The notes below the pieces were generated by a model. It worked only from the letters and a program-made list of their open reading frames with translations, searched no databases and was not told where the DNA came from. From a virus, in IMG/VR virus record IMGVR_UViG_3300047994_000087, positions 64,001-128,000 of that record: 64,000 bases of DNA; one strand, written 5' to 3'. The translations under genes were made by a program, and so were the position numbers. Shown here piece after piece: positions 10,044 to 32,770 of the stretch; within the stretch, counting starts at the first letter, position 1, and every line of letters starts with the position of its first letter.

Positions 10044-10337
10044 TTAAGTAATCTTCCGCCAACCATTAGCTTGAATAGCAAGAAAAGCTAAAGCGGCCTT
10101 TAGCTGGAACTCGTCTTTATCAGTTCCTGCCAACGTACCATCATATGCATCTTGAACTACTTTAGAGGCGTTCGCTATAGCTTCAGCTCTGCCTTTGCGT
10201 AATGCAATCTTGATCTTAGGGTCGAGCCTCATCTCAGCACGGAACTCGTCCTCAGAATAATCCAGGATAGCGCAAATCTCTTCTATGTCCATTCGCTGTT
10301 TAGAATATGTCTGAACTTGCTGATAATCGACGATCAT
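10044..10337 (-). CDS. HTH protein, terminase small-subunit-like
   Basis: EEICAILDYSEDEF HTH, then DPKIKIALRKGRAEA and AALAFLA...W pattern. Confidence 0.4.
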   Translation of the reverse strand: MIVDYQQVQTYSKQRMDIEEICAILDYSEDEFRAEMRLDPKIKIALRKGRAEAIANASKVVQDAYDGTLAGTDKDEFQLKAALAFLAIQANGWRKIT

Positions 10338-10534
10338 TTATCGGCTTTCTTACGTCCAGCAGCTGCTTTGGCATCAAACTTAGCTTTACCTAGTTTTTTT
10401 CTGCCTGCTATGGCGGCAACTGCATCAGCTTCTTTCTCTGGCTCGCCCTTGCGCTCCAGGTCTCCCACAAGCTTCTTGAACTTGGACTCTTCCAATTCAG
10501 CTGCGGCCAGAATGTCTCCACTTCTACTCATCAC
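10334..10534 (-). CDS. small basic protein with MSR-type leader (candidate internal head protein)
   Basis: MSRSGDILAAAE leader; K/A-rich AGRKK repeats. Confidence 0.6.
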   Translation of the reverse strand: MMSRSGDILAAAELEESKFKKLVGDLERKGEPEKEADAVAAIAGRKKLGKAKFDAKAAAGRKKADK

Positions 10535-14183: not shown

Positions 14184-14828
14184 TCAATCTCTGCTGAGGC
14201 GAAGATGTTGGTGTGCTGACTGACGTTTGTGTTTTCCATGTGCAGATCCTTTTGCCATCTGCATCAATCTTAAATCTTGGTCTATCGTTGAAACGGAAGT
14301 TGAGGCTTTTGCATATGAGTACAGATTGTTCCAAGCTTCAATATATGGAGCTGCCCTTTCTGGACTGCGACTTTGGTTAAATGTCAGCACATTGCACTGC
14401 TCATCAGCGGAATCTGTGTAGTTCCAGGACCCGTCGATTACGTAAGCATGGTCTGCAATCGAGAACTTAGAGTGCATCAAAGCGTGATGATCTGGTGACG
14501 TTGTAACAAGCACCTCAATACCAGCTCTACGCATCTGATCAATAAGTGTCTGTTCCTTATCAATAGACAAAGTCTGTGACTTGTCGAGAATGACTTTGAC
14601 GATGACGCCATTGGCAGCCAGTCGACAATACTCATCCGCTACTCTCTGAGAAGTCATTGTGTAGACAGCTACATACAGGGAGTATTTAGCATTCTCCCCA
14701 ATGTAGTCCACATACGTCTGTGTCCCGTTCTGTGCGGGAGTGAACACCGTCGATAGATCACACAGGTAAGCCATGGCTGGCTGTAATGATAACGCGCACG
14801 CAAGGGCCAGTGGTAGGAGCGATTTCAT
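14184..14828 (-). CDS. phospholipase D-family (Nuc-like) nuclease with signal peptide
   Basis: Single HxK(x4)D(x6)GSxN motif (HSKFSIADHAYVIDGSWN); N-terminal signal ending AMA. Confidence 0.88.
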   Translation of the reverse strand: MKSLLPLALACALSLQPAMAYLCDLSTVFTPAQNGTQTYVDYIGENAKYSLYVAVYTMTSQRVADEYCRLAANGVIVKVILDKSQTLSIDKEQTLIDQMRRAGIEVLVTTSPDHHALMHSKFSIADHAYVIDGSWNYTDSADEQCNVLTFNQSRSPERAAPYIEAWNNLYSYAKASTSVSTIDQDLRLMQMAKGSAHGKHKRQSAHQHLRLSRD

Positions 14829-15469
14829 TACTTCTTTAGTCTCAACGCTTTGTTGATGTCAGCTTTGTTGAAGGCAACAACAGGGATAAGACCAAGAGAC
14901 TCCCACAGCTCACGTCCAGCAATGTTGCCGCTTATAAAGGCACCTTCAACCATGGTGAATTTCTTTCCTCGCAGCTCAGACCATCCCTGCTTTATCAGAG
15001 AATCCCCAAAGGAGATACGTCCGAACACAGGGGAGAATGAACCACTCTTATCCAGGAAGCCAATCTGATTGCCATCAGAGTACAGCACTGCGTCCTGATT
15101 GTATTTACTACAGGCGTTGGCCATGAGCTTGCGGAATTCAGACTCAGGCAGGCCACCTGATGCAGGCACAAAGAAAGACCGTTCTTGAGTCGGCTTTTCA
15201 TCGCCAGCTTCTTGCCAGTAGCCAATCAACTGAATGCCGCCTAGATTGGCAGCGTTCAAAGAGCGGATAAGCTCAGAGTTCAAACGGTCGTTCTCAGCTT
15301 CACTGTTATTGTGTCGACTTGCAGTCACTAGAGCATAAGGGGCTCCAGAAGTAGCATGAGTGTTGATACGTGAAAGACCAGCACCTTCCAGAAGAGACAG
15401 GTCAATCCAGGTCACAGCCACATTAGGGTGGTTGTCTGCTTCTGCCAGAATACGCTTAGCTCTACTCAT
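14828..15469 (-). CDS. phage protein with MSRA leader
   Basis: MSRAKRILAE; body with TASR, ERSFFV and KYNQDAVLY motifs, which I recall from T4-like phage hypotheticals. Confidence 0.7.
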   Translation of the reverse strand: MSRAKRILAEADNHPNVAVTWIDLSLLEGAGLSRINTHATSGAPYALVTASRHNNSEAENDRLNSELIRSLNAANLGGIQLIGYWQEAGDEKPTQERSFFVPASGGLPESEFRKLMANACSKYNQDAVLYSDGNQIGFLDKSGSFSPVFGRISFGDSLIKQGWSELRGKKFTMVEGAFISGNIAGRELWESLGLIPVVAFNKADINKALRLKK

Positions 15470-15876: not shown

Positions 15877-16242
15877 TTAAACATGCTGTTGTCTTGCTTT
15901 GAATTGAGCGTAATCGATCTCGCTTCTCCAAAGTTGCCATAGAAGATCTTTATTCAACTGCATCCAAGCCATTACTGATTCAATATCTTTTCTAGTGATT
16001 CCTTTAGGCACTTCTATGTCCTTGTCTAAATGAGGCTCTCCTAAGATGTCCATAATTATCGGAAGACACTCATCCTTAGTGAAGCTGTTTCCTGAGGAGC
16101 TTACCTTTACTCGTACTAGCGGATGGCCGCCTTGTTCCACTGAAACATAAACAACCTTAGACAACCCACTGTCTTTAGGAAAGATGTTGACCATCTCAAA
16201 CAAATCACTATGACCTTCAATTATTCGTTTGGCTCTTTTCAC
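15877..16242 (-). CDS. DUF4160-like protein with MKRA leader
   Basis: MKRAKRIIE; EMVNIFPKDSGL, HPLVRVKV, WMQLNKDLLWQLW. Confidence 0.55.
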   Translation of the reverse strand: MKRAKRIIEGHSDLFEMVNIFPKDSGLSKVVYVSVEQGGHPLVRVKVSSSGNSFTKDECLPIIMDILGEPHLDKDIEVPKGITRKDIESVMAWMQLNKDLLWQLWRSEIDYAQFKARQQHV

Positions 16243-16755
16243 TTAATCGACCTCTCTCAATATCTTCTTCGCCCTACTCTCAAACTGATTACCCGCTGCG
16301 TCTCTGGAATAATCATACGCTTGCAGGCGTCCAAGGTGATTATAACCTACCTGAGCACCGTCTATGTTGGCTATCCAATGGGGGTCCGTGCTGTCTTGTT
16401 TGTCGATGATGTCATGGCTTACGCCACTGTCTAAGCGGATAGTGTTCTTCAGCTTCTCCATGACCAGGACGGGCGGATTGTAGTCGTAATCTAATTCACA
16501 TTCAGCAAAGTGGCTGAGTGGGTGAGAAGCCCATAGATTACGTTCAATTGCATTGTCCCTCTCTCCATCTGGGGAGAGGGGAGCTTTGTACACATATTGA
16601 TCGTGGTCATTAAATATAAGGCGATAAGAACCGCAGCCAATGGGCTCTCCATATCTGTCCCGGAGTTGTCCAATGACTTTACGGTACTGGTCAAAGCTAG
16701 CACCGCCAGTGTTGAGGATGGTTGTTATGGCCTGGTTCCAGTATTGGTTACTCAT
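16243..16755 (-). CDS. minimal protein kinase-like protein
   Basis: IGCGSYRLIF glycine loop, VYK, N..E, LVMEKL, QVG...AYDY; paralog of the N domain of 27883-28920. Confidence 0.65.
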   Translation of the reverse strand: MSNQYWNQAITTILNTGGASFDQYRKVIGQLRDRYGEPIGCGSYRLIFNDHDQYVYKAPLSPDGERDNAIERNLWASHPLSHFAECELDYDYNPPVLVMEKLKNTIRLDSGVSHDIIDKQDSTDPHWIANIDGAQVGYNHLGRLQAYDYSRDAAGNQFESRAKKILREVD

Positions 16756-17583: not shown

Positions 17584-17596
17584 ATAAATAATCACT

Positions 17597-18247: not shown

Positions 18248-18264
18248 AACAATGCCCTCTATAA

Positions 18265-18342: not shown

Positions 18343-18345
18343 GTA

Positions 18346-18421
18346 TGGAGCACGTTGTCAGATTTGCACTGACGCATATCCGCTTTGCAGGCGGGTGCAT
18401 TACTGTCTTTGCTAAACGCGC
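18346..18421 (-). tRNA. tRNA-Cys(GCA)
   Basis: Anticodon loop CTGCAAA; U73; CCA. Confidence 0.9.
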
Positions 18422-18424
18422 ATA

Positions 18425-18499
18425 TGGGGTGAGTGACGGATCTTGAAACCGCATTACCTAGTTCACAACCAGGGGTCCTAGCCTTTAGACGACACTCAC
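18425..18499 (-). tRNA. tRNA-His(GTG)
   Basis: Anticodon loop TTGTGAA; C73; CCA; the base at -1 is T, not G. Confidence 0.9.
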
Positions 18500-18503
18500 A
18501 ATT

Positions 18504-18574
18504 CTGGTCCTGAAGGTAACGCTCCTTCTTCTCTTGCGTCAGAGGCAAGCGCGATGCTAGTACGCCAAGGACCA
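18504..18574 (-). tRNA. tRNA-Gln(CTG)
   Basis: Anticodon loop CTCTGAC; U1-A72; no CCA. Confidence 0.85.
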
Positions 18575-18625
18575 ACGAAATTGCCTGGTCGGCTCTCTCG
18601 TTATGATGTCGCTGTCGGTATGAAA

Positions 18626-18700
18626 TGGATGAGGAAGTAGGACCTGCCCCTACCACTCCTGCTTCAAAGGCAGGCACGTTTCTAACTACGCCATTCCTCA
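18626..18700 (-). tRNA. tRNA-Gln(TTG)
   Basis: Anticodon loop CTTTGAA; U1-A72; CCA. Confidence 0.88.
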
Positions 18701-18748
18701 ATATGCTGATGACAGCAACATCAGAGGTTTGGTTTTGTTGTCGGAAAA

Positions 18749-18824
18749 TGGAGGTCCAGGCACGACTTGCACATGCACCAGCGCTCTTATCGGGAGCGTG
18801 TTCCACTATTTGAACTACTGGACC
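18749..18824 (-). tRNA. tRNA-Ile(GAT)
   Basis: Anticodon loop CCGATAA (C33); CCA. Confidence 0.85.
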
Positions 18825-18826
18825 AA

Positions 18827-18901
18827 TGGTCCGAGATGCACGAATTGAACATGCTTGATCCTGCTCCCAAAGCAGACGGCCAGCCAATGGCCCAATCCCG
18901 G
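18827..18901 (-). tRNA. tRNA-Pro(TGG)
   Basis: Anticodon loop TTTGGGA; CCA. Confidence 0.9.
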
Positions 18902-18904
18902 TCG

Positions 18905-19375
18905 TAGAGCTGTTAAGCTCTGGGGTTTGGACTAATTCGCGGTCGGTTGAAAAATTTAGAGAAGGCATTGCCTGAATTTCCTACATTGTTGATAGCTACG
19001 CTGCACAGCGATAATGACGACCAGCTAAACTGGCAATCGCTTTGGAGGCTATAATGTAGGGACAAATTCACTGGAACTATTTCCTTTTAAACTAAACCTT
19101 TAGTGGCTGATCTTACGTGTAGCGCCTAAAGGCATCTGCAAACTAATCTATCACAGAAGCTGATCACTTGCAAATTTGTTTGCATTTTTGAAAACACAAA
19201 CTAGATGCTCATACTTTTAATCACTTTCAAAATCAAATCCCATAAACCGATCTGCGTCATCATTACTACTAAACTCAAGGAATGTGCGTAAAGGCTCAGA
19301 CCAATGAATGCAGTCGTATTCTATTTTGCCATCTAGGTTTCTCCATTGCTCAGAGCAGGGGAGAATGACCTGTGT
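18905..19375 (+). ncRNA. candidate ~470-nt structured ncRNA
   Basis: Nested long-range helices, with G-U pairs only on the + strand; no ORF. Confidence 0.5.
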
Positions 19376-19389
19376 CTCTTGCGTTATTC

Positions 19390-20157
19390 TCACAACGTCT
19401 CCTCGTAGAGTTTAGTTGTCTCCAGTACGAGAGCAGGCAATATCTTTACTGGATCACAGGCATACAAACCTGCAACGTTGACGCTGCCAGTTTCAAGAAT
19501 CCGATAGCCATCTCCACCATCGCAAACATCCAGCACGTAAACTGGGGGCAATCCAGGATACATTGGGACCGACTCTGCAAATTCTTTTACGGTCTCTTCA
19601 ACGCCAGCTTCTATGTGACGCTTTCCATCCCTTCTATAACAACAAACATCGAGGAGTCTTCCTTGGTGCATAAAGCATCTCCATTCATGCCGAATCTTAT
19701 AGGCTGGAGCGGCAACAACCAATGTTGAAGGCTGCACCTGATATCCATTGAATAGTCTCTCAAAATCTTCATAGCAATAGACGCCACCGTTGAAAAGCTT
19801 GTCGTTAGTGTCTGGACGTAGGAAAAGGTCTCTATCAACAAGCACCCCTTCTCTATCCCAACCCCATCTCTCCATTAAAGTCCCAGCTGGGAGCATGATA
19901 TACTCCTGATTGAACAGAAATTTATGCCAATACCCTGCATAGTCTTGAAACCTCAGAGACTTCCAAGGGGTCAAATGGAACACATGGTTTTGAACCTGCT
20001 TAGTTACGCCGATACTTGCGTGCAGCAGTCCGTAATTCTCATAGCGAGCAGCTTCTGTAGTCGGAAGAGTGTTTACCTCAACTTCCAGCCCAAGCTTTTC
20101 CGCCGCCTCTTTGACCAGAAGGTCTTCTGGAAGGAAATGTTCAAGTAACCATTTCAT
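19390..20157 (-). CDS. ATP-grasp domain protein (DUF4343/R2K-like)
   Basis: FLRP...KLFNGGV, EWRCF, YVLDV, ILETGSVNVAGLY. Confidence 0.82.
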   Translation of the reverse strand: MKWLLEHFLPEDLLVKEAAEKLGLEVEVNTLPTTEAARYENYGLLHASIGVTKQVQNHVFHLTPWKSLRFQDYAGYWHKFLFNQEYIMLPAGTLMERWGWDREGVLVDRDLFLRPDTNDKLFNGGVYCYEDFERLFNGYQVQPSTLVVAAPAYKIRHEWRCFMHQGRLLDVCCYRRDGKRHIEAGVEETVKEFAESVPMYPGLPPVYVLDVCDGGDGYRILETGSVNVAGLYACDPVKILPALVLETTKLYEETL

Positions 20158-20954
20158 TTCTTCATTCCTTCCTCCAGCGTCACATAGCCATGCTTGATCG
20201 CGATTAGTCCTGTGGACATAAGCGGAAGGAAAGCAGACCTTATCTCAAACTCCATCAGCTCAGGATGAGCATCGTGCATTCTCCGCACCAACGTGTCCAT
20301 CTTGAACACTCCAAAAGGAGTGAGCATTTCCAATATTTCTTGTTGAAGGCTCATCTCATTTTCTCCAACACTTTCTATCTCCAGGGTCATTGAAATCAGC
20401 AGCCATAGGCTCTTTATCCCACAAGTCTACAAGCTCTTTTACTACAGGGAGGGCTTCCGCTTCGTAATCAACCATGGCTTCGATACTCATCTTGATCGCC
20501 CTCCGCAGCTTCCTGCTGGTCTTGGCCTGCACCCACTTATTGGAAAACTTCTTTCCACACACGCCAATGTGTTTTTCATTGTAGTTTTTATGAGAGCGAC
20601 TCACTGCTCGCACAGCCTCCAATCAATCTCATCTTCAAATTTCAGGGCTACTTTGTAAGCGACACCCCCATACAGACAGCTACAATCATTAGACTCTGAG
20701 TCATTATCATATTGATCATCAGTGCTACCGCCATTCTCGTAGAAGAATTGCCTGCGATTACAATCACACGAAGCGCTGCCTTCTTCCCACCAAAATAGGG
20801 TGGTGCCCTTTGTCACGCCTGGATAATCCATGTTGTGATCATACTCAACCTGAGCACCGTCAGCAGTTCTTGTAATTCTTACTTGGTATTTCATAAAACC
20901 GCTCCAGCAGTCAACATCTTTAGACTACTGGAGTTTTCATACGCATCTTGTAAA

Positions 20955-21029
20955 TGGTTCCACTAGACTGGATCGAACAGTCATCAGACCCTTATGAGAG
21001 GTCGGCCTTAACCATTAGGCGATAGTGGG
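20955..21029 (-). tRNA. tRNA-Met/Ile2(CAT)
   Basis: Anticodon loop CTCATAA; C1xA72 mismatch; CCA. Confidence 0.88.
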
Positions 21030-21036
21030 ATAAAAA

Positions 21037-21111
21037 CTGCGAGAGAGGGCCACGATCCCCCAACCTTCTCCTTAACAGGGAGTTGCTGCCACCTACTTGA
21101 GCTATCTCGCA
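21037..21111 (-). tRNA. tRNA-Asn(GTT)
   Basis: Anticodon loop CTGTTAA; no CCA. Confidence 0.85.
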
Positions 21112-21118
21112 ATATAAA

Positions 21119-21189
21119 TGCTCCATGTTGGTACTGCCCCAACAAATCTTCCTTGTAAGAGAAGCGTGATACTTTTTCACCAACAGAGC
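21119..21189 (-). tRNA. tRNA-Val(TAC)
   Basis: Anticodon loop CTTACAA; no CCA. Confidence 0.85.
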
Positions 21190-21192
21190 GAA

Positions 21193-21264
21193 TCGGCTGC
21201 ATACGAGTTGCACGTATACCAAACTTCTTAAGAGGAAGGTGTCCTGCTATTAGACGAGCAACCG
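21193..21264 (-). tRNA. tRNA-Lys(CTT)
   Basis: Anticodon loop CTCTTAA; no CCA. Confidence 0.85.
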
Positions 21265-21267
21265 AAA

Positions 21268-21342
21268 TGGCCCCCACACTTGAAGTCGAATCAAGACCCT
21301 TTCCTTCGTAGGGAAAGATGCTATCCATTACACTATGCGGGT
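21268..21342 (-). tRNA. tRNA-Arg(ACG)
   Basis: Anticodon loop CTACGAA; CCA. Confidence 0.9.
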
Positions 21343-21343
21343 A

Positions 21344-21419
21344 TGGCCTTCCTGGAGAGATTTGCACTCCCGTAAGCCCGCTTAGAAGGCGGGTGCCCAA
21401 TCTACTAGACCACAGGAAC
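21344..21419 (-). tRNA. tRNA-Arg(TCT)
   Basis: Anticodon loop CTTCTAA; CCA. Confidence 0.88.
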
Positions 21420-21420
21420 A

Positions 21421-21495
21421 TGGTGGGTTGTGATGGTTCTGCCCCATCATCAAACTGCTTAAAAGGCAGGTGTCTTGCTGTTAGACCAACAACCC
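21421..21495 (-). tRNA. tRNA-Lys(TTT)
   Basis: Anticodon loop CTTTTAA; CCA. Confidence 0.88.
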
Positions 21496-21516
21496 AAATA
21501 GTTTTTAAATTTTGAA

Positions 21517-21590
21517 TGGTAGGGTGCACGGGGATCGAACCCGTTTTACCTAGTTGAAAGCTAGGGTTCCGACCAATAGAAGAGCACCCC
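21517..21590 (-). tRNA. tRNA-Glu(TTC)
   Basis: Anticodon loop CTTTCAA; CCA. Confidence 0.9.
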
Positions 21591-21591
21591 A

Positions 21592-21666
21592 TGGAGCCGA
21601 TGGACTGGTACTGCCCCGTCGCTTCCACATTACAAGTGTGGTTTGCTACTTTTACAACACAACGGC
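21592..21666 (-). tRNA. tRNA-Thr(TGT)
   Basis: Anticodon loop CTTGTAA; CCA. Confidence 0.85.
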
Positions 21667-21672
21667 AAAAAA

Positions 21673-21747
21673 TGGTGGAATGTCCGAGCTTTGCTCTCGG
21701 CTCTACTGATTGCAAGTCAGTGGTTTTACTGAATAAACTAACACCCC
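21673..21747 (-). tRNA. tRNA-Ala(TGC)
   Basis: Anticodon loop CTTGCAA; G3-U70; CCA. Confidence 0.9.
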
Positions 21748-21950
21748 AAGTATCAGGCGCTAGCTCGTGCGTTCTTAGTAGAGGCGCTCTTTGTAGTTCG
21801 CTCTCGTGTCGTGTTTGTAGTTGTTGTAGAAATAGCATGAGTAGTAGGTTCCAGAATAGGTGTGCAAACGTTAGCGACAGGCATTACCCGTCTGCTATTT
21901 CGTTTGACATTTATCCTTACAGTACTCACGTGTTTAGGTCCTTGAATAAA

Positions 21951-22025
21951 TGGAGCGGTCTGTGGATCTTGAAACCACATTCTCTGCTTGGAAGGCAGTA
22001 GTCTTAGCCTTTGGACGAAGACCGC
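21951..22025 (-). tRNA. tRNA-Gly(TCC)
   Basis: Anticodon loop CTTCCAA; U73; CCA. Confidence 0.9.
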
Positions 22026-22293: not shown

Positions 22294-22331
22294 AAAACAA
22301 AAACGCTCCTGAAGGACTACTTCAAGAGCGT
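22294..22331 (-). terminator. rho-independent terminator
   Basis: ACGCTCTTGAAG/CTTCAGGAGCGT stem followed by TTTTGTTTT on the - strand. Confidence 0.7.
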
Positions 22332-22367: not shown

Positions 22368-22859
22368 TTACTCAACTTTCCAATCAGACACGCCATCACT
22401 CAGGAAGGTTTTTGTAGTGGTGGTTGCAATAGTGGTTGAACCAGCCGCACCCCCAGCTACCGTATCTGTTCCATTGGCAACTGCCATAGTTACAGTACTA
22501 GACCCTGAATTGTGGATATGTATTTCCGCACCCACACCAGCAGTTGCAGCGGATGGCAAAGTAGCCGTACTAGCTGAACTTGAGGTTTCATAGAACGATT
22601 GACCAGCTTTAGCTGTAAATGATCCAGCCTCACTTGTTACAGCTGTAAAACGACCCTGAAAACCAAGATTACCTTGAACAAGAGTCAACGGAGCTGCTAC
22701 TTGTACAGGGAAGATACTTCCATTAGGAGCAGTAGTTCCAATAAGAACTTGAACTCCGCCATCATACTGAGCCTTAACGATTCCAGCGCCAACCAAAGAC
22801 AACACTGCTGCGGCCACGACCGCGATTACATTCTTTCTTCCTAGCTTCATTCTATTCAC
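22368..22859 (-). CDS. exported or virion beta-rich protein
   Basis: N-terminal hydrophobic signal ending VKA; T/S/G-rich body with TLPSA..G and SDG..W motifs seen in fibre-associated domains. Confidence 0.55.
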   Translation of the reverse strand: MNRMKLGRKNVIAVVAAAVLSLVGAGIVKAQYDGGVQVLIGTTAPNGSIFPVQVAAPLTLVQGNLGFQGRFTAVTSEAGSFTAKAGQSFYETSSSASTATLPSAATAGVGAEIHIHNSGSSTVTMAVANGTDTVAGGAAGSTTIATTTTKTFLSDGVSDWKVE

Positions 22860-23343: not shown

Positions 23344-23556
23344 CTACTTTTGCCCTGCTTTGCTCCGAATCAAACTATCCAGAGTACTTGCCGCATGGTC
23401 TATGTACACAGCAACCTTATCCAACCCATCAGCAGCATCCTTGTCGTCCTGGTAGGTAAACGAGTACCCTTTTGCAATATCCCTTGCAGCCTCCAATCGT
23501 CTTTGCAGGGTGAGCAAATATTCGTAGCGCTCCAATAAATCTTTTGCCCTACTCAT
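23344..23556 (-). CDS. MSRA-leader protein
   Basis: MSRAKDLLE leader. Confidence 0.7.
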   Translation of the reverse strand: MSRAKDLLERYEYLLTLQRRLEAARDIAKGYSFTYQDDKDAADGLDKVAVYIDHAASTLDSLIRSKAGQK

Positions 23557-23921
23557 ATCCCTAGCCTGTGTCTAATTATGCTCTCGTAGTCATATCCATC
23601 ACTGCCTACTTGCGCTTTGACTTCCCATATCCCTGCATTGTCTTTGTTGATAAAGAAGCAAGCCCAATAGTTGGGATCTAATCCCTCACATTCCATGAAT
23701 CCGTCGTGAGTCATTTTGTAAGATTCCCAAATGTACATAGTGCTCTTGTCAGTACAAGGACGTTCCAGTAAACAGCGGAGTCTGTCATACCCATGATCAA
23801 GTCGCACTTCTGTAAGAGCGCGATCTATAGAACGAGCATTGACCGACACACGAATCTTCTCCGCTGTCCCCACGTCCAACATCTCTACTGATTCTAGGAT
23901 GTGTTTTACTCTACTCATCAT
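23553..23921 (-). CDS. MSRA-leader protein
   Basis: MSRVKHILE; shares MY.W.SY..TH motif with 23911-24504. Confidence 0.7.
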   Translation of the reverse strand: MMSRVKHILESVEMLDVGTAEKIRVSVNARSIDRALTEVRLDHGYDRLRCLLERPCTDKSTMYIWESYKMTHDGFMECEGLDPNYWACFFINKDNAGIWEVKAQVGSDGYDYESIIRHRLGI

Positions 23922-24504
23922 TCAGGAACTCCTGCACTTCTTCTGGCTGATCATATGGCCGACCATCCACTACATAACTAGACATCTTCCAACCACTCTT
24001 AGCAGACGGCTCTCTGTCTAACTCTCCACGCTTACTAAAGGCATATGACACTCCCAGAGCATTGGCTGCAAATTCATGGGTACGGTCATAGGAAGCCCAG
24101 AAGTACATATCTCCGTCTTCTGACACCAGGAAGCGAACGTGGTTGCCGTTCAAACCGCGCTCGCCCAATCGCAACTCCTTCTCCATGCGTTTGACGTTAC
24201 GAGGATTAACAGACACTCTTGTTCCGTCTGCTATCTCAACACTCTCCATCGCCCTAGCCATCATGTAGGTCTTCTGCTCCAGGTCCTTTTGAGACATGGG
24301 CAAGGTCGGCTTTCCGGCCCACTTGTTTATCGCTGCACGGATCTCAGGTGTGACGTTGTCGGTAGTGGCCCAAACAAACTGTCCATCACTGAATGCCATA
24401 ACCACATGCCAGCAGTACAGGAGTTTGCAGTTGCCGTACACCACTTCCGAAGTATGTGAGTCCAGGTCACGGACCAGCTCTAGAAGTCTTCCAGCTCTAC
24501 TCAT
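23911..24504 (-). CDS. MSRA-leader protein
   Basis: MSRAGRLLE; VRFL...DMYFWASYDRTH. Confidence 0.7.
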   Translation of the reverse strand: MSRAGRLLELVRDLDSHTSEVVYGNCKLLYCWHVVMAFSDGQFVWATTDNVTPEIRAAINKWAGKPTLPMSQKDLEQKTYMMARAMESVEIADGTRVSVNPRNVKRMEKELRLGERGLNGNHVRFLVSEDGDMYFWASYDRTHEFAANALGVSYAFSKRGELDREPSAKSGWKMSSYVVDGRPYDQPEEVQEFLNDE

Positions 24505-25196
24505 TTATACTAAGCGCCTTCCCTACATGATAGTCAATCTCTTCCTGACTTATCATAATCAGGCCTACCTTTTGAGGACCAAATAGGTGGTGTACATTGA
24601 AAGTACACGTCTGCGCCACAATCTCAGTGAACAATACTGGCCACAATTCTTCTGGAGTATTCATGCACTGCCCTTGGTAGGCAAGCACCTCACCCCTCAG
24701 GCTAAAAGGAGCGTGTCCTGTTGTGTGTCCCAGCAGGTCGTGTGCAATGCGAAAAGCAACGTTTGTATCAACTGACCAGACAGGGTGGATACTGTGCAGA
24801 CTGGTCACTTTAAACACACCCTGTGCAATGTCCGCAAACATCTCGTCTGAGGACTTGTAGGGGTCGACATCGTCGTACCGGATAATCTGATAGTCCTTTG
24901 AAAGCATGGCGGCCTGCTCGACACAACAGCGTCCTAACTTCTCCCAACTTCTCCCAAAGCTCAGAGGCGGAAGAGTCGTATGTTGGCATAGCATCATAAG
25001 CAGCACAGATGTCAGCCGCTTCCTTACTATAGAAATCTATGCCTGTAGGCGATATGGCATACTCGCGCACAATGGCACCGCCACGAGGAGCATTGCCAGT
25101 AAGGAATATGGCGTTGTTTGCCTTTACTATCTCCTCAGGAGACTTACACTGGATGCGCTCTTCTTTCATAGCTAATAATCTCTTTGCTCTACTCAT
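24497..25196 (-). pseudogene. MSRA-leader protein with HDxxGH (zincin-like) domain, frameshifted by a 10-bp duplication
   Basis: ORFs 24810-25196 and 24497-25006 both read WEKLG; tandem AACTTCTCCC x2 at 24936-24955. Confidence 0.8.
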
Positions 25197-25645
25197 ATCT
25201 GAACCACCTTAGCCTTCCCCGATCCGGTCAGCACTAGGGCCAGATTGAGTCTAGTATTCCCGGACATTATTGTGCGTCGTCCGTTCTTCTCAAGCACGAT
25301 GGGCAGCTTCATGGGAGAGCCATTATGAATGCCGTCTATGATGTCCTGGAAGGTTTTATCGTTCCGATACTGTGGCCAGCTTCTGTAGCCCTTGACCATG
25401 TCTAAAAGATCCTCGACCGGCATCATTGTGGCACCGCTTATGCCTGACGTGTTTGACAGAGAAATTGTCTGTCCTGCTCTGTAGGCGTCCTCAAAGTCTT
25501 CGAAGGTCGGCCAGATGTCTCCAGCCCAATGCCTTACGTGGTACTGGTACTCGACGTTATATTCCTGTTGCAAGTCCGCAGTGGAATTATCCACCCAGTT
25601 TATGGATTCGTTGATTGAAGATAGTATGTCTCGTGCTCTGGTCAT
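25193..25645 (-). CDS. ParB/sulfiredoxin-like domain protein with MTRA leader
   Basis: MTRARDILSSINE; LPIVL...IMSGNTRL. Confidence 0.65.
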   Translation of the reverse strand: MTRARDILSSINESINWVDNSTADLQQEYNVEYQYHVRHWAGDIWPTFEDFEDAYRAGQTISLSNTSGISGATMMPVEDLLDMVKGYRSWPQYRNDKTFQDIIDGIHNGSPMKLPIVLEKNGRRTIMSGNTRLNLALVLTGSGKAKVVQI

Positions 25646-26256
25646 AGCATCTTCCTGTAGTGATCTGTCGATAGACTGTCGGAGAACTCCCACTCAATCT
25701 CATCGTCCTTCATTGCACGTGAAGTCTCCAGGTTAGAGAAAGCAGCGCCTTCCATAGAGTTGTAGACATAAATGGGAATTCCCTTTTGCTTTGCCAACTC
25801 CCAGTCTTTCTTCATACGGTTCATGTTTACCGAACCACGTTGCGACTTACCCAACCACATATGAATCGCCTTTATGTAACTACAAGCATCAGGGATAATC
25901 CTGTCTTTGCTGAAGACGCGATCTTCCATCTCAACTGTGTCGCCGGAACCACGTGAGTAGTCCTTGGCCTGGTGGAAGGCTTGGAAATCCACAGCGTGCC
26001 CTGAGTATCTATTGTTGAACTTGTCCCCATCAAGCACCAGTAGGACTTCCCTGTAGTTGTAGTCTCTGTAGGCATTACGCACACTACGAGACACGCAGAA
26101 TGAATACGGCTTGTCTGGTGGATTCATAGCCCTGTCCACGTCGTAACCGCCAAGCATAAACTCGTTGTTCTCCAGAATACCCCCTAGAGCTGAGGCGCTA
26201 GTGCCGTGGAACACAACAGATGATATGCGTTCTAGGATGTGTCTTGCGCGGCTCAA
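25642..26256 (-). CDS. ADP-ribosyltransferase-like protein with MSRA leader
   Basis: FHGTS, FCVSRS and EMED (H / S / ExE layout); paralog of 26592-27146. Confidence 0.55.
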   Translation of the reverse strand: MSRARHILERISSVVFHGTSASALGGILENNEFMLGGYDVDRAMNPPDKPYSFCVSRSVRNAYRDYNYREVLLVLDGDKFNNRYSGHAVDFQAFHQAKDYSRGSGDTVEMEDRVFSKDRIIPDACSYIKAIHMWLGKSQRGSVNMNRMKKDWELAKQKGIPIYVYNSMEGAAFSNLETSRAMKDDEIEWEFSDSLSTDHYRKML

Positions 26257-26591
26257 AATCCCATCTCCCTGCCATTCTGATATTTGTCTTGTTGCACTGG
26301 CCCCAGCACATCAAACTGCGTGGCAGTTGGATCAAATATCTGTCCACTCACTTCACACCAAGAGTGGTAGTGTCCGTCGTAATAACCTTCCATTCTCTCC
26401 ACAGGGAAGCCCGCTCCATATAGCATCTTCGCCCAGGTAGCGCTTTTAGCGGTGCAGTCTAAGTTCCACTCATCGGCAAAGATGTTGGTGAAACGATGTG
26501 ACATGATCCAGGCCTTCACCTCTGGGTTAAACCCAGGTGAGAACCAGAATGGTGGCTCCGCGCTCTCTAATAATCGTCCGGCGCGGCTCAT
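26253..26591 (-). CDS. transglutaminase-like (Cys-His-Asp) protein with MSRA leader
   Basis: DCTAKS, HSWC, IFDPTATQF. Confidence 0.6.
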   Translation of the reverse strand: MSRAGRLLESAEPPFWFSPGFNPEVKAWIMSHRFTNIFADEWNLDCTAKSATWAKMLYGAGFPVERMEGYYDGHYHSWCEVSGQIFDPTATQFDVLGPVQQDKYQNGREMGF

Positions 26592-27146
26592 CTATAAATC
26601 TCCATGGAAGTAGTCCATAAGCAGCTCTTCAGAAGCCGCAAAGCGCTTGTCCATATCTTTGAATTCGGCTTCATTGGTGTAGCCATAGAACGGTATGTTC
26701 AGATTATGACAAAGCACATAGATGTCATAGACCACTTCTCTTGCCTGGCTTCCATAGCCACTCAGTAAGGACACGTGTACTTCTCTAACGTAAGTACGTG
26801 CATTAGGTATTTCAGGCTTGTCGCTGAATATGCGATCTTCCATCTCTGAACGTCTGTACTTATCAGTGCCAGCCATCCAGTCGACAGCGTGCCCAGTGTA
26901 GCGATCATTGAACTTGTTCCCATCTAGAACTAGCACAGCTGTGCAAGCTCCATCTTGGAAGAACCCATTAGTTTTACTACGGGCAGCGCTCATGCAGTAT
27001 TCACGTGTTGTGTCAGGAAGGCCATCTACTCCAGTGTGCTTTAGATGAAACAAATTCTGCTGCAATATAGACAGCGCATTCTCTCGGCTTGTCGCATGGA
27101 AGAGAATGTCCGACACTCGTTCTAAGATGTGACGTGCTCTACTCAT
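26592..27146 (-). CDS. ADP-ribosyltransferase-like protein with MSRA leader
   Basis: FHATS, MSAARS, EMED. Confidence 0.55.
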   Translation of the reverse strand: MSRARHILERVSDILFHATSRENALSILQQNLFHLKHTGVDGLPDTTREYCMSAARSKTNGFFQDGACTAVLVLDGNKFNDRYTGHAVDWMAGTDKYRRSEMEDRIFSDKPEIPNARTYVREVHVSLLSGYGSQAREVVYDIYVLCHNLNIPFYGYTNEAEFKDMDKRFAASEELLMDYFHGDL

Positions 27147-27886
27147 TAGTTGCGCTCCCTCTGGACAAGCACCTTACGGTACTGAGAGAAGTTATTCTCA
27201 ACCCAGAAGACAACGTCCGCTAATCTGTCCTCTGTATGGAGCACTCTGTCAGTCCGCTTATCTTGGACTTCCCAGCCACTTCCATTCCACCAGATAGGGA
27301 CAAAATCTGTAGCAGTCCCTGCTACGAATACAGTTTGATATTCCTCGTCGCCATGGTGTCTGACAGTTACTCCAGAAGCACGGAACATCACAGCATCACG
27401 TCCATAATGATCTCCTTCTGCTGGACGTAAATTATCGTCAGCAAAAGCAAACACGTAAGCGCTCAAGGGGTCACGAATGAGCTTAGCACTGTTCTTGTAA
27501 TAGGTGGTCAGACCTAGCCGGTCGAAGTCCTCTAGGCCGTACTTGAATCCCTGAGCAATGATGTCGCTAACGTTGTTAGACTTGTGAACCATCCATGTGT
27601 TGTGTGTGATCTCATCGAAGTCCATGAACATGTAAGAAGGGTCATCCGGGCTGTCAAAGCGGTTGTTGTCAAACACCCACTTACCAAACTTGATACGTTC
27701 TTCTTTAGAGAGGTCATCAAATTCTTTGCCGTCCTCAATGCCCTTTTCCTGCGCGTAATTCTCATACTCATAGGAGTGTGAGTAGGAGATGTCGTCAGCC
27801 TTCTCATCATCCGTCATGGTGAGATAGTTCTTGAACCAAATCAACGGATTACTTATGTACTCTAAGATTTTCCCAGCCCTGGTCAT
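27146..27886 (-). CDS. MTRA-leader protein, possible ART-like fold
   Basis: MTRAGKILE; WMVH..., YVFAF, YG..AVMF, DEEYQTVF. Confidence 0.55.
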   Translation of the reverse strand: MTRAGKILEYISNPLIWFKNYLTMTDDEKADDISYSHSYEYENYAQEKGIEDGKEFDDLSKEERIKFGKWVFDNNRFDSPDDPSYMFMDFDEITHNTWMVHKSNNVSDIIAQGFKYGLEDFDRLGLTTYYKNSAKLIRDPLSAYVFAFADDNLRPAEGDHYGRDAVMFRASGVTVRHHGDEEYQTVFVAGTATDFVPIWWNGSGWEVQDKRTDRVLHTEDRLADVVFWVENNFSQYRKVLVQRERN

Positions 27887-28920
27887 CTATGTGTCTCCAC
27901 TCGCAAAATGGCAGACACAGGCACCCTCACATCTTCACCTTCTCGACGACTGATCCACTCACGCTCGTCGTCTTTACACATAAATGAATCTATCTCAGCT
28001 TCCTCATAGTCCTTCTCACAGGCATCGTCATAATCATCGTCGTCATCAAAATCTTCAGGATCTAGTGAGCATTCATACTGCTCTCGCCACCCTTCTCCAG
28101 CTATGTACGACATCTGATCAGGATGCTGCCTTGCCCACGATCTGGTATATTGAACTTGCTCAAGTTGCCCCGCAAGAGCGTTCTTATCCACAGCAATCAC
28201 ACAGTCTCTGGCTGATATGTCATAGACCCATGGCTTCTCCGAGAAAGAGACAAAACCCTGTTGCCCTGGTCTGAACACACCGGTGCGTTTGATCTCGTCA
28301 GCCACGCTGAATGATGTTGTATGGTACAACTCCTGCGATTCTAATATCTTAGCCGCTCGTCCGAACGAAGACACTTGTAAGAATGCCAACACTGTGCTTG
28401 CTCTACTCTCAAACTGATAGCCATCAACTCCACGAGAATAGTCATAAGCTTTAACTTGTCCATCACGGCTTATGCCTACTTGCCCTGCATCGAGTTTGTT
28501 TATCCATTGAGGGTCAAGATCTGCCTGGTCATAAACACCAGCTTGTAAGCCCGTCTTGAAGCGCATCAGTTGAGTGAGCTTCTCCATCATCAAGACTTTC
28601 ACTCCATGAATTGCAACCATCTCGCACTTCGCATAGTGGCTCATTGGATGCCGTTTGAATATGTCATATTCTTTCTGATTGTCAGACTCCCCCTCCAGAT
28701 CAAGAGGCATCTTCACCACGTTCTCTCCAGCATCAAAGACAACTCTGTATGCCCCAATACCAATTGGTTCCCCATATTTAGTAGTCAGGTCTTCCAACAG
28801 CGTTATATAAAGATGGAGTTGGTTCGGTGCGTATGCGAACGAAGCAGCTACATTTGCAGCAGCCTTCTGATAAATTTGATTATGGTCACGTTCATTCAAG
28901 AACTCAGAGGCTCTACTCAC
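27883..28920 (-). CDS. kinase-like plus ART-like fusion protein with MSRA leader
   Basis: N domain IGIGAYRVVF..VVK..N..E..MEKL..AYDY; C domain LYHTTS, VSFS, EREW. Confidence 0.65.
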   Translation of the reverse strand: MSRASEFLNERDHNQIYQKAAANVAASFAYAPNQLHLYITLLEDLTTKYGEPIGIGAYRVVFDAGENVVKMPLDLEGESDNQKEYDIFKRHPMSHYAKCEMVAIHGVKVLMMEKLTQLMRFKTGLQAGVYDQADLDPQWINKLDAGQVGISRDGQVKAYDYSRGVDGYQFESRASTVLAFLQVSSFGRAAKILESQELYHTTSFSVADEIKRTGVFRPGQQGFVSFSEKPWVYDISARDCVIAVDKNALAGQLEQVQYTRSWARQHPDQMSYIAGEGWREQYECSLDPEDFDDDDDYDDACEKDYEEAEIDSFMCKDDEREWISRREGEDVRVPVSAILRVETHR

Positions 28921-28932
28921 CGGACTTACCTC

Positions 28933-29127
28933 TTAGTGAATAGCTCTTGAGTCTTTCTTCCTAGCTCTGTTCATGGCTCTTGCTAATGCCTGTTCAGGAT
29001 GCTTTCTGTCTTCCTCATCATCCGCAGCCTTCTGTGCTGCAAGCTCAGCAGCCGCTTTCTTAGGGTGCATTAGTTTAGAGATCATGCTGCGCTCAGCCAG
29101 GTCGAGTAATTTTCCAGCTCTAGTCAT
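28933..29127 (-). CDS. small MTRA-leader protein
   Basis: MTRAGKLLDLAE. Confidence 0.65.
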   Translation of the reverse strand: MTRAGKLLDLAERSMISKLMHPKKAAAELAAQKAADDEEDRKHPEQALARAMNRARKKDSRAIH

Positions 29128-29572
29128 TGTGCTTTTCCTCTTTGGCGCGAGCTTTTAAGTCATGATGAATGTCGTGATCCGACTTGCCACGGTAACTGTC
29201 CACGGTCTTGTCGAAGTCACTGTCCGAACCAGCATGCTTATCTAAGTACTTACGCACGTGATGGTGTTTGTCGGCCACATGGTTCATAGCTGTCACCACT
29301 CTATGTCTCTCCGGGTCGTGACCGTCATCTTTATAGATGGCCTGGGCATTGTAAGGATGGGACAATTTCTTCTCTAAGTCCTTACCTGCATGTTTAACGT
29401 GGTGAGCTGTCTTCTTAGCTTGTGCGTCTAGACTACGTTCAAAAACCGACCGATCTGCACATGGAAGACAAATTCCTTCTTTTATCTCACCACCAAAGAG
29501 AGGCTGCTCACAAGTTTGACAAACGTGTTTCCAATCCAATTGTTCTAGTAGACGACCAGCTCTACTCATCAC
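29120..29572 (-). CDS. MSRA-leader protein with CxxC..CxxC and His-rich tail
   Basis: MSRAGRLLE; CQTC...CLPC. Confidence 0.7.
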   Translation of the reverse strand: MMSRAGRLLEQLDWKHVCQTCEQPLFGGEIKEGICLPCADRSVFERSLDAQAKKTAHHVKHAGKDLEKKLSHPYNAQAIYKDDGHDPERHRVVTAMNHVADKHHHVRKYLDKHAGSDSDFDKTVDSYRGKSDHDIHHDLKARAKEEKHND

Positions 29573-29700
29573 TTAGGTCTCCCAAAAATAAGGTCTTCAA
29601 TCACTTGGTCGAGCAGGGAAAGGGCTGTGTTTGTTTTGCCGCTGTCCACCATCTGTCTGATCTCTTTCAGACGGTCGAGAGTGCTGCGCTCTTCATTCAT
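29569..29700 (-). CDS. small hypothetical protein (below the ORF-track cut-off)
   Basis: MNEERSTLDRLKEIRQ...FGRPK; its stop overlaps the next start. Confidence 0.5.
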   Translation of the reverse strand: MNEERSTLDRLKEIRQMVDSGKTNTALSLLDQVIEDLIFGRPK

Positions 29701-29728
29701 TGTCGTTTGAGACAAAATATCTGCTGCT

Positions 29729-31249
29729 TTACTCACCGACTTGTTCCTCTGGAATCAGGAACTGCTCAATGTCAGCATCAGAGAGTTCTTGTGCCTCATC
29801 TCGCTTGATGTCTGGTGCAAACTTATCCCAGAGAGCGTCATACATGATGCCCACTGAGCCACTCTCGTAATCATCATCGAACGTGGCATAGTTAGGGCTG
29901 TAGGGACTTGTACTTGCTGCGGAGTAGAGGTTACTCCACTGACCACTATGGAAGTGATCTCCGAAGTACTTGATAGCGATCTCAGCATCATCGTCGCCAC
30001 CATCTCTCCAGTCGACCAAACCACTCAGATGGCTCTTTAAGTAATCCATCATCTCTTGCTTAGTTGGGTCCATGGCTTCGTGCTTTCCCTGGTCTCCAAG
30101 CCTCAACTTGGTGCCTGCATTACTTTTGAAACCAACATGCTTAGGTCCTGTGTCAGTGACCTCCCAATCAGCCCCATAAGAATCTTGCACCTTATCACCA
30201 GGATTGAGTTTCTTGGAGCCGTGGAAATGATCGTGCACATGTGAGTACAGATCGTTGTGCGCTGGGTTCTTAGGACGGCCTTGGTCGTCATACCAAGTAG
30301 CCTCAGCAACAACGTCCTCATCCTTCTCACCACCCAAGTCTTTATCATCCTTTGGGTCCTGTGCGTCCTTCAGTTTGTTGTTGTCCTTGCCTTGCTCTTT
30401 GGCAGTGGATTCCCAGCTGGCTTTCGTCTTCGGTTTGGCTTTACGCTTAGCTTCAATCTCTTTAGCCTTGGCCAAATGATCCATCCCGGCCTTCATGTGG
30501 CTACCATCGGCATCTTCGTCTTCACAGTCGGAGCCTTCCTTAAGCACTGACTCTCCCATATAATTGTTGATGTACTCTTTTGCACGTTTAACGGTCGAGT
30601 GCAGCGTGCCCCCATGTCCGTCCGGCATGTGCTCTGGATGTGAAACTGTGTAGCCCTTAACTTTACGGTGAGTGCCAAAGCCTAACTGGGCTGATAGATT
30701 ATGCGAATCTGGCAGTCGGTGTCCTATCTGTACGCCAGAGAAGGGCTTTATTGTCCATCCCTTGTGTTCTATGTCTTCATCGACAGAATCTTCCTCAACA
30801 GCCATGGCAGCTTTGAGCATGTCTGATGCGGACTCGTTCTTAGACACTTTATACTTTGGCTTGGAAGAGACTCTGTCCTTAACTTCGTCGTCTGTAAGGT
30901 CCGACAAGTTAACTATCTTTGTTGCTCCGTTTCTGAGCACCATAATGGACCTATTTCCCTTAGCATCCATGCCTTTGTAATCACGGTGGGTGTTATTCCA
31001 AACAGCGTCTAAATGGTCATCACGTTTGGCTTCATTCTTCGGACCACAACCACACGCACCTTCTCGCACAACGTCTCGTCCAGTCAATTCCTTGATCATA
31101 CGAGTGGCTTCATCGTGCTTCATAAGGCCGTTCAGTTTGACACCAGCACAGGAAGAAGCGAGCGACTTCTCCGCCATATTAAATCTTTGTCGATCTGCTC
31201 TGGAGAGATCATCGTCAAATGACTCAAGGAATTTAGCGGCCTTACTCAT
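29729..31249 (-). CDS. multi-module MSKA-leader protein (possible polyprotein)
   Basis: MSKAAKFLE after GGAG RBS; string of short modules separated by charged linkers. Confidence 0.75.
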   Translation of the reverse strand: MSKAAKFLESFDDDLSRADRQRFNMAEKSLASSCAGVKLNGLMKHDEATRMIKELTGRDVVREGACGCGPKNEAKRDDHLDAVWNNTHRDYKGMDAKGNRSIMVLRNGATKIVNLSDLTDDEVKDRVSSKPKYKVSKNESASDMLKAAMAVEEDSVDEDIEHKGWTIKPFSGVQIGHRLPDSHNLSAQLGFGTHRKVKGYTVSHPEHMPDGHGGTLHSTVKRAKEYINNYMGESVLKEGSDCEDEDADGSHMKAGMDHLAKAKEIEAKRKAKPKTKASWESTAKEQGKDNNKLKDAQDPKDDKDLGGEKDEDVVAEATWYDDQGRPKNPAHNDLYSHVHDHFHGSKKLNPGDKVQDSYGADWEVTDTGPKHVGFKSNAGTKLRLGDQGKHEAMDPTKQEMMDYLKSHLSGLVDWRDGGDDDAEIAIKYFGDHFHSGQWSNLYSAASTSPYSPNYATFDDDYESGSVGIMYDALWDKFAPDIKRDEAQELSDADIEQFLIPEEQVGE

Positions 31250-31918: not shown

Positions 31919-32770
31919 TCATGCCGGTTGCTCCCACGGAAGGACAGTGATGTTTTCGTCTGCCAAATATTTCCTGTACTGCTTCCATCCTTTGAAATTG
32001 CCCAGGTAACCTCCATCGTATGAGGAGGCTGCGTGCTCTAGTGCGGACCCATGCATCGGACGACTCTTACACAGTTGGTCGTGGAGGGCCTTGTCCTTTT
32101 CTCTGCTGGGATGAGTGCCGTCGTGGTTTAAGTAGGACACTCGTGCGCATCTAGCTACTGAGCACTCTATAAGCTCTTGTATGTCGTCCCCATGCTCTTC
32201 AAAATCTTCCCACTCTAACTGATTAATAAAAGGAAGATGCCAGCGACCATAATCAAGTAGCTTCGGTACAGAAGCTCTATACGCTTCCCTCATATCTCTG
32301 GCTAACAGGGCGATGTGTGGCTCAGCCATGGGGTGATCACGCAGAGCAAAGAAATTGGCGTAATCAGTTGCTGACAAGACAATCTTTGTGAACATCCAGC
32401 TCTCCAATAACCTGTTTACGGTCTGCTTGTGCAACCCATAATCAAGTAGCCGTTGTGCTCTGTCCACAGCTGCATCCCTGGCTTCAAGCCATGTGATTTT
32501 GCATGCCTCAATGGTCTCTGAATCTAACTCTTCTCCTGCCTGCATGCCAGGTTTATTAGAGCCCCAATGAATAGGAATGAATGGTTCTTCAACCACTTGC
32601 TTGATCATTTTAGCTACAGGGATGGCACGGCTGCTGGAGGCGTTCCTACTGAACATCCTGTGAGTATTAAATTCACTCAGCACTATACGAGGCAGTGTCA
32701 GAACAAAGGTGGTGAGCCGATCTCCTTTAGGATTGACTGAGTCACAGATTACTTGTGCTGATATTTTCAT
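31919..32770 (-). CDS. thyX: FAD-dependent thymidylate synthase
   Basis: EFNTHRMFSRNASSSRAIP, HKQTVNRLLE, SVARCARVSY, H.SALEH. Confidence 0.92.
   Translation of the reverse strand: MKISAQVICDSVNPKGDRLTTFVLTLPRIVLSEFNTHRMFSRNASSSRAIPVAKMIKQVVEEPFIPIHWGSNKPGMQAGEELDSETIEACKITWLEARDAAVDRAQRLLDYGLHKQTVNRLLESWMFTKIVLSATDYANFFALRDHPMAEPHIALLARDMREAYRASVPKLLDYGRWHLPFINQLEWEDFEEHGDDIQELIECSVARCARVSYLNHDGTHPSREKDKALHDQLCKSRPMHGSALEHAASSYDGGYLGNFKGWKQYRKYLADENITVLPWEQPA

Follow-up and report, generated by a model that had tools for sequence, protein, structure and literature searches.

An N-terminal leader shared by twenty mostly unrelated genes of an uncultured T4-like phage is a probable capsid-targeting propeptide

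Why would a run of adjacent phage genes, most of them encoding unrelated proteins, begin with the same short peptide? This question is raised by a 64,000-nucleotide stretch of IMG/VR record IMGVR_UViG_3300047994_000087 (the window), which covers bases 64001–128000 of one virus contig of 146,741 bp and belongs to an uncultured T4-like phage. On the minus strand of the window, between positions 23344 and 31276, 14 close-packed genes occupy approximately 8 kb, with overlap of a neighbor's stop codon being common, and the encoded proteins share an N-terminal leader, referred to here as the tag. Comparison of this leader with the head genes of the phage and with homologous proteins of other phages suggests that it is probably a capsid-targeting propeptide like that of the T4 internal proteins, with a new sequence and a much expanded cargo. 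Positions refer to the window unless they are marked as genome positions.

The leader follows the consensus M-[ST]-[RK]-A-x-x-[ILF]-[LI], with a glutamate within the next 0–6 residues; its nine-residue core is M-S-R-A-x-x-[IL]-L-E. Twenty genes carry it genome-wide: 14 in the array, three elsewhere in the window and three outside the window. The first-pass annotation had found the leader on 13 of 14 array genes. Its description of the tag stands; the exception does not, as the 'leaderless' open reading frame (ORF) at 24497–25006 is the 3' half of a broken tagged gene. A perfect 10-nt tandem duplication at 24938–24957 moves the tagged ORF 24810–25196 into the frame of 24497–25006, and because these two ORFs make up one frameshifted tagged gene, the array count is 14 of 14. 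The duplication may be a genuine mutation or an assembly slip. The same annotation had listed three additional tagged genes, and those at 10334–10531, 14828–15469 and 15877–16242 are real, while its total of 16 rises to 20. Two of the tagged genes outside the window lie immediately downstream of the major capsid gene (genome 42525–42851 and 42857–43090), and the third is located in the lysis/tail region (genome 11787–12083).

A weight-matrix scan of all six frames recovered 22 sites with a score of at least 15, against a mean of 1.3 over 30 shuffles; this figure is circular and indicative only, because the leaders themselves supplied the training set of the matrix. A cleaner test comes from the called proteome, in which one of 38,331 internal positions matches and the remaining sites come after a start codon. 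Over the whole contig there are twenty N-terminal copies of the leader and essentially none elsewhere in the proteome. Its reported absence beyond 31.9 kb also holds, the matrix scan of the window having identified no tagged gene start there; the sole site in that region scoring at least 15 (at approximately 32042, score 15.3) has no preceding start codon. Approximately 90 ORFs of replication or early type in the same region are without the tag, which is accordingly not as frequent in early genes. An ORF of 114 amino acids at 60433–60777, starting M-S-K-K-T-D-R-L-L-T-E, resembles the leader with one extra residue and falls below the matrix threshold; judged by its sequence, it may be a divergent twenty-first member. 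An orphan 15-codon ORF on the minus strand at genome 41897–41944 begins with the leader M-S-K-A-G-D-I-L (matrix score 18.3) and shares sequence, in a different frame, with the end of a head-module gene; this may be the remnant of a lost tagged gene.

Beyond the leader, the proteins have little in common. All-against-all BLASTP of the leader-free sequences detected three paralogue pairs only (23553/23911, 25642/26592, and 29120 with genome 42525), in keeping with the earlier description of the bodies as mostly unrelated; the protein encoded at 16243–16755 additionally matches the N-terminal half of 27883–28920. Searches of Pfam, NCBIfam and PHROGs returned nothing for most of the tagged bodies, and a megablast comparison of the array with 50,697 phage records gave no match.

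Conservation of the leader lies mainly on the peptide, to judge from the pattern of codon change. Among the 20 leaders, codon positions 1 and 2 are 65% identical and position 3 is 37% identical; the flanks (24 nt upstream; codons 16–23) reach 26–29%, and the 24–45 nt upstream are likewise not conserved (29% identity). Alanine is encoded by GCA, GCT and GCC, leucine and isoleucine by nine codons, and glutamate by both of its codons, while the start codon is ATG, GTG or TTG, and codons 4 and 7–9 change synonymously. The drift at third positions, the varied codons and starts and the unconserved flanks argue for a constraint on the peptide; synonymous change is free at most codons and the upstream DNA is not conserved, which is the outcome that the first-pass annotation had expected of an amino-acid-level signal. 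A residual bias is confined to codons 2 and 3, where serine is always AGY and 13 of 18 arginines are AGA, a codon with a genome-wide share of 31%. Such a bias fits common descent of the leaders, and some selection on the initiation region may contribute. An mRNA-level signal at the start codon, for example a translational operator or an initiation enhancer, would also favor a bias of codons 2 and 3 to AGT AGA beyond genome usage, and since many of the genes overlap the stop codon of a neighbor their translation is probably coupled. Such a signal is nevertheless very improbable as the explanation of the leader, given the lack of upstream conservation, the synonymous variability of codons 4 and 7–9, the differing start codons and the fact that copies away from a start codon keep the same amino acids.

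The end of the leader connects it to head maturation. In T4, gp21 cleaves after a glutamate that has leucine or isoleucine two residues before it, and the capsid-targeting sequence (CTS) is a 10-residue N-terminal propeptide with a gp21 site at its end; the CTS attaches to the prohead core and is later cut off (PMC9026906). The terminus of 19 of the 20 leaders fits this specificity, having at the sequence level a hydrophobic residue (L, I, M or F) at position P3 and glutamate at P1 of the putative cleavage site, at residues 9–15. The genome encodes a capsid protein of 504 amino acids from the T4 Gp23 family (PF07068, 1.1e-13), a contractile tail sheath and, directly upstream of the capsid gene, a protein of 502 amino acids (genome 44714–46222). 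The N-terminal part of the latter is a Peptidase_S77 domain of the T4 gp21 type (PF03420, 34.4 bits with a cut-off of 27; PHROG 207, 1.5e-30), and its C-terminal ~300 residues are helical, coiled-coil, of low complexity and rich in L-x-E. Because it combines an S77 N-terminal part with such a C-terminal region, we assign it on sequence grounds as a fusion of prohead protease and scaffold. The first-pass annotation had suggested a check of the prohead core for I/L-x-E sites like that of the leader; L-x-E is abundant in the scaffold region fused to the S77 protease. An alignment of four sequences did not fix the maturation site of the capsid protein itself, the search for PHROG 3503, the small scaffold/core protein, gave no match here, and a single-sequence search of IMG/VR with the capsid protein produced no relative. 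The end of the tag coincides with the motif at which T4-type head proteases, such as that of this phage, cut, which makes the tagged proteins most likely cargo that is loaded into the head and injected with the DNA.

A cultured relative places the tag on a head component. By capsid protein, the nearest deposited phages are Rhizobium phages of the Kleczkowskaviridae, at 40% identity. One of these, RHph_TM30, has a tagged gene for a protein of 105 amino acids three genes after its capsid gene and three consecutive tagged genes, gp329–gp331. The first of the three, gp329, carries the annotation 'prohead core protein'; its PHROG 3503 'head scaffolding protein' match is at 3.4e-12, and its tail is very basic. 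BLASTP gave no match between this core protein and the small basic tagged protein of 10334–10531. RHph_TM30 likewise has a protease fused to a scaffold, of 503 amino acids. Since a phage whose capsid protein is only 40% identical bears the tag, including on its core protein, the tag appears from these sequences to be old, lineage-wide and present on a head-core component. Its use has expanded about five-fold in the present phage relative to RHph_TM30. No description of the tag was found in the literature searched, an incomplete set that included the PhiM9 paper.

Which proteins would such a tag deliver? The AlphaFold2 model of the protein encoded at 25642–26256 (predicted local distance difference test, pLDDT, 87; predicted template modelling score 0.85) has its first strand at residue 14, with the leader outside the fold (residues 1–10, pLDDT 67); in the model of the 246-residue protein the leader is also outside the fold (residues 1–9, pLDDT <50). 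The 25642–26256 model matches ADP-ribosyltransferases (ARTs) only, with a Foldseek probability of 1.0. In the VIA structure comparison it aligned to Tpt1 7yw4 with a Z-score of 11.0 (root-mean-square deviation 2.5, 112 aligned residues) and to DarT chains with Z-scores of 8.2–9.3 (138–146 aligned), and the best 36 VIA matches (Z-score of at least 4.3) were all ARTs or ART-fold proteins. Residues E109, E111 and R113 never vary in 104 members of this family, and conservation of H17, T19 and R57 is 90% or higher, in keeping with the pattern of a histidine in strand 1 and an acidic residue in the late strand. The proteins of 25642–26256 and 26592–27146 are thus predicted to have an ADP-ribosyltransferase fold, Tpt1/KptA- and DarT-like, with catalytic-type residues conserved. 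The same domain is also present inside giant proteins with ART-PolyVal, NUDIX and GNAT domains. The protein of 27146–27886 may be another ART: its top Foldseek matches are all ARTs but weak (E 0.06–0.3), and VIA gives a Z-score of 5.5 to Scabin. On the basis of a PF23780 match of 61.6 bits (cut-off 28; E 9.6e-17), with a weak match to PDB 7ock (E 0.33), the protein of 14828–15469 is assigned as an S-adenosylmethionine (SAM) lyase. SAM lyases are a class with a phage anti-restriction function. Small, basic tagged proteins that are reminiscent of T4 internal proteins are encoded at 10334–10531, 28933–29127 and genome 42857–43090.

The gene at 27883–28920 brings together two modules. Its N-terminal half belongs to PHROG 4301 and is a paralogue of 16243–16755, its C-terminal half matches the ART family weakly (hhalign E 1.4e-3, probability 17%), and between the two stands an internal copy of the leader (residues ~188–196, end I-L-E). 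A kinase reading of 16243–16755 and of the N-terminal half of 27883–28920 had a SteC match at E 0.07 as its sole basis and is kept only as a lead. The presence of leader copies at fusion and fission junctions suggests that the tag-coding DNA is also a place at which genes are fused, split and shuffled.

Comparative evidence comes from three cargo families whose homologues elsewhere keep the body and carry other, lineage-specific leaders. The family to which the body of 25642–26256 and its paralogue 26592–27146 belong is very large, with 2316 representatives at an E-value of at most 1e-3. One close homologue from a metagenome, 58% identical, keeps the tag of the present phage. The homologue in Alishewanella phage Slicko01 stands among nine consecutive genes that start M-K-I-D-x-L-Y-E-S-x-L-x-E, that of the T4-like Vibrio phage D484 has a leader resembling the T4 CTS, and four metagenomic phages with an ART homologue each have their own tag, on 6–9 neighboring genes. 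Homologues of 27146–27886 all continue with Y-I-S-N-P immediately after the glutamate of five different leaders. Among homologues of the SAM lyase of 14828–15469, this tag is found at 58% identity and a different one at 37% identity. The leaders of these other lineages differ in sequence and retain the same length and the terminal hydrophobic-x-Glu. In 122 ART-family members the position 10 residues before the catalytic-type histidine is leucine or isoleucine in 96 and the position eight residues before it is glutamate in 96, and the proteins usually start 6–8 residues before this L/I-x-Glu. S77 proteases are encoded by Slicko01 (1.8e-22) and D484 (4e-98), and Gp23 capsids by Slicko01 and by G002, a complete 200-kb phage whose array directly follows the capsid gene. 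A metagenome scan with the ART alignment returned distant loci only and did not recover the 58%-identical JGI relative. The scaffold of Slicko01 (record 139.2–140.1 kb) has the N-terminus M-K-E-D-L-K-Q-L-F-E-S-V-V-L-N-E-E, which resembles the cargo leader of the same phage; the tag may, from this likeness, mimic the scaffold's own N-terminus. We give about an even chance to the broader proposal that hydrophobic-x-Glu tags are a general, exchangeable 'zip code' in phages with gp23/gp21 heads, that effector genes pass from phage to phage by a swap of the tag exactly at the glutamate, with tagged single-domain arrays and polyvalent proteins as alternative packings of the same effector domains. 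If this is true, the injected proteome of an uncultured phage could be read from its over-represented N-terminal decapeptide.

The distribution of leader copies could also be a relic of duplication and recombination, in which the tag DNA served as a homology patch at cassette borders and the peptide was functionless. Common descent would fit the uniform AGY serine codons and the excess of AGA described above, and copies do lie at points of fusion and fission (inside 27883–28920, at the tail of 16243–16755 and in the orphan ORF at genome 41897–41944). A functionless peptide would not be expected, however, to persist while third positions drift between phages whose capsid proteins are only 40% identical, nor would leaders of different sequence in other lineages be expected to keep their length and terminal hydrophobic-x-Glu. 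We regard this explanation as unlikely in its own right; a recombination role is compatible with capsid targeting as an addition rather than a replacement.

A somewhat less unlikely possibility, still improbable, is an interaction or regulatory peptide unrelated to the capsid. It might be a helix that docks the proteins on a common host target, on a chaperone or on a phage compartment, or a degron that sets when they are turned over. In its shortness, its predicted position outside the folds and its conservation as protein the tag is like any short linear motif, and the main array is situated amid non-structural genes. Left unexplained by a docking or degron function are the coincidence of the tag's end with the motif cleaved by the protease family that the phage itself encodes, the tagged genes beside the capsid gene, the tagged scaffold/core homologue in RHph_TM30 and the finding that homologous bodies bear a separate tag in every lineage that has a T4-type head. 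Each of these alternatives is weaker than capsid targeting.

Under capsid targeting, the tag would bind the assembling prohead core, built by the protease-scaffold fusion protein, and tag-bearing proteins would be enclosed as the gp23-type shell closes. Peptidase_S77 would then cut after the glutamate of hydrophobic-x-Glu, freeing the mature protein inside the head; the cargo would exit with the DNA at the next infection, and this modular set of ~20 proteins would act on the host before phage gene expression. Core binding, cleavage, packaging and injection are steps that we infer. The cargo classes recognized, the ART fold and the SAM lyase, fit injected effectors. The first-pass annotation had proposed a different targeting tag that loads modular cargo into the head, and the leader sequence, the head genes and the swapping of leaders all support it, as did each computational check that the annotation had put forward.

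Several observations weigh against this reading. It is founded on sequence comparison and predicted folds, for an uncultured phage known from its genes alone. The main array is located away from the structural module, its neighbors being a group of tRNA genes and a putative thyX gene. A single copy of the T4 late promoter TATAAATA is present in the genome, at a distance from the array, and no late-promoter motif common to the tagged genes was found; in the same analysis, 7-mer enrichment in intergenic regions gave a weak AATAGCA motif only, absent upstream of the array, and sigma-70-like sites were at the level of shuffled sequence. Most of the cargo is acidic or neutral, with isoelectric points (pI) of 4.7–7.8, unlike the basic T4 internal proteins. 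One leader, at genome 42525, has arginine at P3, and a leader-like motif at the C-terminal end of 16243–16755 is not predicted by a purely N-terminal model. No S77 match was detected in G002, though it has a leader array. Finally, the stretch [LIV]-x-E-[GS]-[LIV]-S before the first ART strand is conserved as well where the domain stands inside polyvalent proteins, and for that reason [LIV]-x-E in the ART family may be partly structural.

The closest known counterpart is the CTS system of T4. Internal proteins IPI–III of T4 have the leader alone in common, the ip loci of T-even phages are hypervariable, and the tag has been used to find ip genes (PMC9026906; PMC12373910). Both systems place an N-terminal propeptide of ~10 residues, ending in hydrophobic-x-Glu, on unrelated proteins in phages with gp21/gp23-family head genes, and both include an ADP-ribosylating enzyme class in the cargo, represented in T4 by Alt as regards function class. 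The ART fold here is Tpt1/DarT-like rather than of the R-S-E Alt type, and by eye the present tag resembles the CTS only in the terminal hydrophobic-x-Glu. There are ~20 tagged genes here and three CTS-tagged internal proteins in T4, the latter small and basic, whereas the present cargo is mostly 100–500 amino acids long, enzyme-like and acidic or neutral. The protease of the present phage is fused to the scaffold; T4 has separate gp21 and gp22.

A hypervariable ip hotspot of T-even phages contains at least 10 Ips, recognized by their signal sequence (Silas et al. 2025, PMC12373910). Like the present array, it consists of non-homologous genes with a common N-terminal leader that are read as injected anti-defense proteins; the array is far larger (14 genes, 8 kb, overlapping frames), and its phage is distant from Tequatrovirus. 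The targets of T4 Ips, the GmrSD nucleases, have no demonstrated counterpart in the present phage. Polyvalent proteins of phages and conjugative elements have been predicted to be packaged in the virion and injected (Iyer et al. 2017, PMC5512222). The ART domain of 25642–26256 also occurs inside them, and both they and the array are read as sets of effectors delivered together with DNA. Polyvalent proteins hold two to fifteen effector domains, in contrast to the array genes, which are single-module, with only 27883–28920 joining two. In the giant phages phiKZ and SPN3US, many head-internal proteins are cut after glutamate by a prohead protease related to gp21. The propeptides of these ejection proteins are long and are not known to share a decapeptide, and their motif is small-residue-x-Glu.

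The principle of capsid targeting is thus already known from T4. What is new is a tag without sequence relation to the T4 CTS, in a lineage whose capsid protein matches the T4 Gp23 family at profile level only (Pfam E 1.1e-13); a cargo of ~20 mostly enzyme-sized proteins, with the array as one 8-kb operon-like unit; and direct comparative evidence, from aligned sequences, that points to tag swapping at the cleavage site between lineages. If the capsid-targeting reading is true, ~20 proteins, most of them without a family, become candidate injected host-takeover or anti-defense factors, among them nucleic-acid-type ADP-ribosyltransferases and a SAM lyase. The comparative pattern suggests that the T4 capsid-targeting principle reaches well beyond the T-even phages, and it would provide a simple sequence rule for listing the injected effectors of uncultured phages. 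The tag is also a possible handle for loading foreign proteins into non-T4 capsids.

Table 1. Tagged genes and one related untagged gene in the window, with start positions of the array genes.
Feature	Window position	Strand	Array start	Description
Tagged gene	10334..10531	-		65 aa; basic, pI 9.6; leader S-R-S-G-D-I-L ... L-E-E
Tagged S-adenosylmethionine lyase (assigned by sequence)	14828..15469	-		Leader end L-A-E, residue 10; lyase domain from residue 47
Tagged gene	15877..16242	-		121 aa; GTG start; K-R-A-K-R-I-I-E variant
Untagged paralogue of the N-terminal half of 27883-28920	16243..16755	-		Leader-like tail 11 residues before stop
Tagged gene 1	23344..23556	-	23556	70 aa; leader end L-L-E, residue 9; body without known family
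Tagged gene 2	23553..23918	-	23918	121 aa; leader I-L-E; body paralogous to C-terminal part of gene 3, BLASTP E 1.6e-6
Tagged gene 3	23911..24504	-	24504	197 aa; no Pfam/PHROG family
Tagged gene 4	24497..25196	-	25196	Two overlapping ORFs: 24810-25196 (leader) and 24497-25006 (body, PHROG 3170)
Tagged gene 5	25193..25645	-	25645	150 aa; longer leader, I-N-E at residue 13; body without known family
Tagged gene 6	25642..26256	-	26256 (TTG)	204 aa; predicted ADP-ribosyltransferase fold (Tpt1/DarT-like)
Tagged gene 7	26253..26591	-	26591	112 aa; body with weak YunG match only
Tagged gene 8	26592..27146	-	27146	184 aa; predicted ART-fold family, paralogue of gene 6, BLASTP E 1.8e-22
Tagged gene 9	27146..27886	-	27886	246 aa; body starts Y-I-S-N-P
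Tagged gene 10	27883..28920	-	28920 (GTG)	345 aa; two modules joined at internal leader copy
Tagged gene 11	28933..29127	-	29127	64 aa; basic, pI 10.0; leader end L-A-E, residue 12
Tagged gene 12	29120..29569	-	29569	149 aa; Cys-x-x-Cys pairs; paralogue of genome 42525-42851, E 1.4e-5
Tagged gene 13	29569..29736	-	29736 (GTG)	55 aa; weaker variant S-K-A-A-D-I-L ... M-N-E; score 16.2
Tagged gene 14	29729..31249	-	31249	506 aa; first gene of the array; leader variant end F-L-E; no family matched

Just upstream of the array, at 31919–32770, is a putative ThyX gene, assigned from the motif R-H-R-x-x-S...S-x-R only. Just downstream, 19 tRNA genes lie on the minus strand at 17010–22025, among them a tRNA-Arg(UCU), which reads AGA, the arginine codon of 13 of the 18 leaders. 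A gene for a protein of 163 amino acids with a signal-peptide-like start is present at 22368–22859, and after it, at 22303–22331, a strong terminator-like hairpin with a 12-pair stem and a run of T probably ends a long transcription unit that contains the array.

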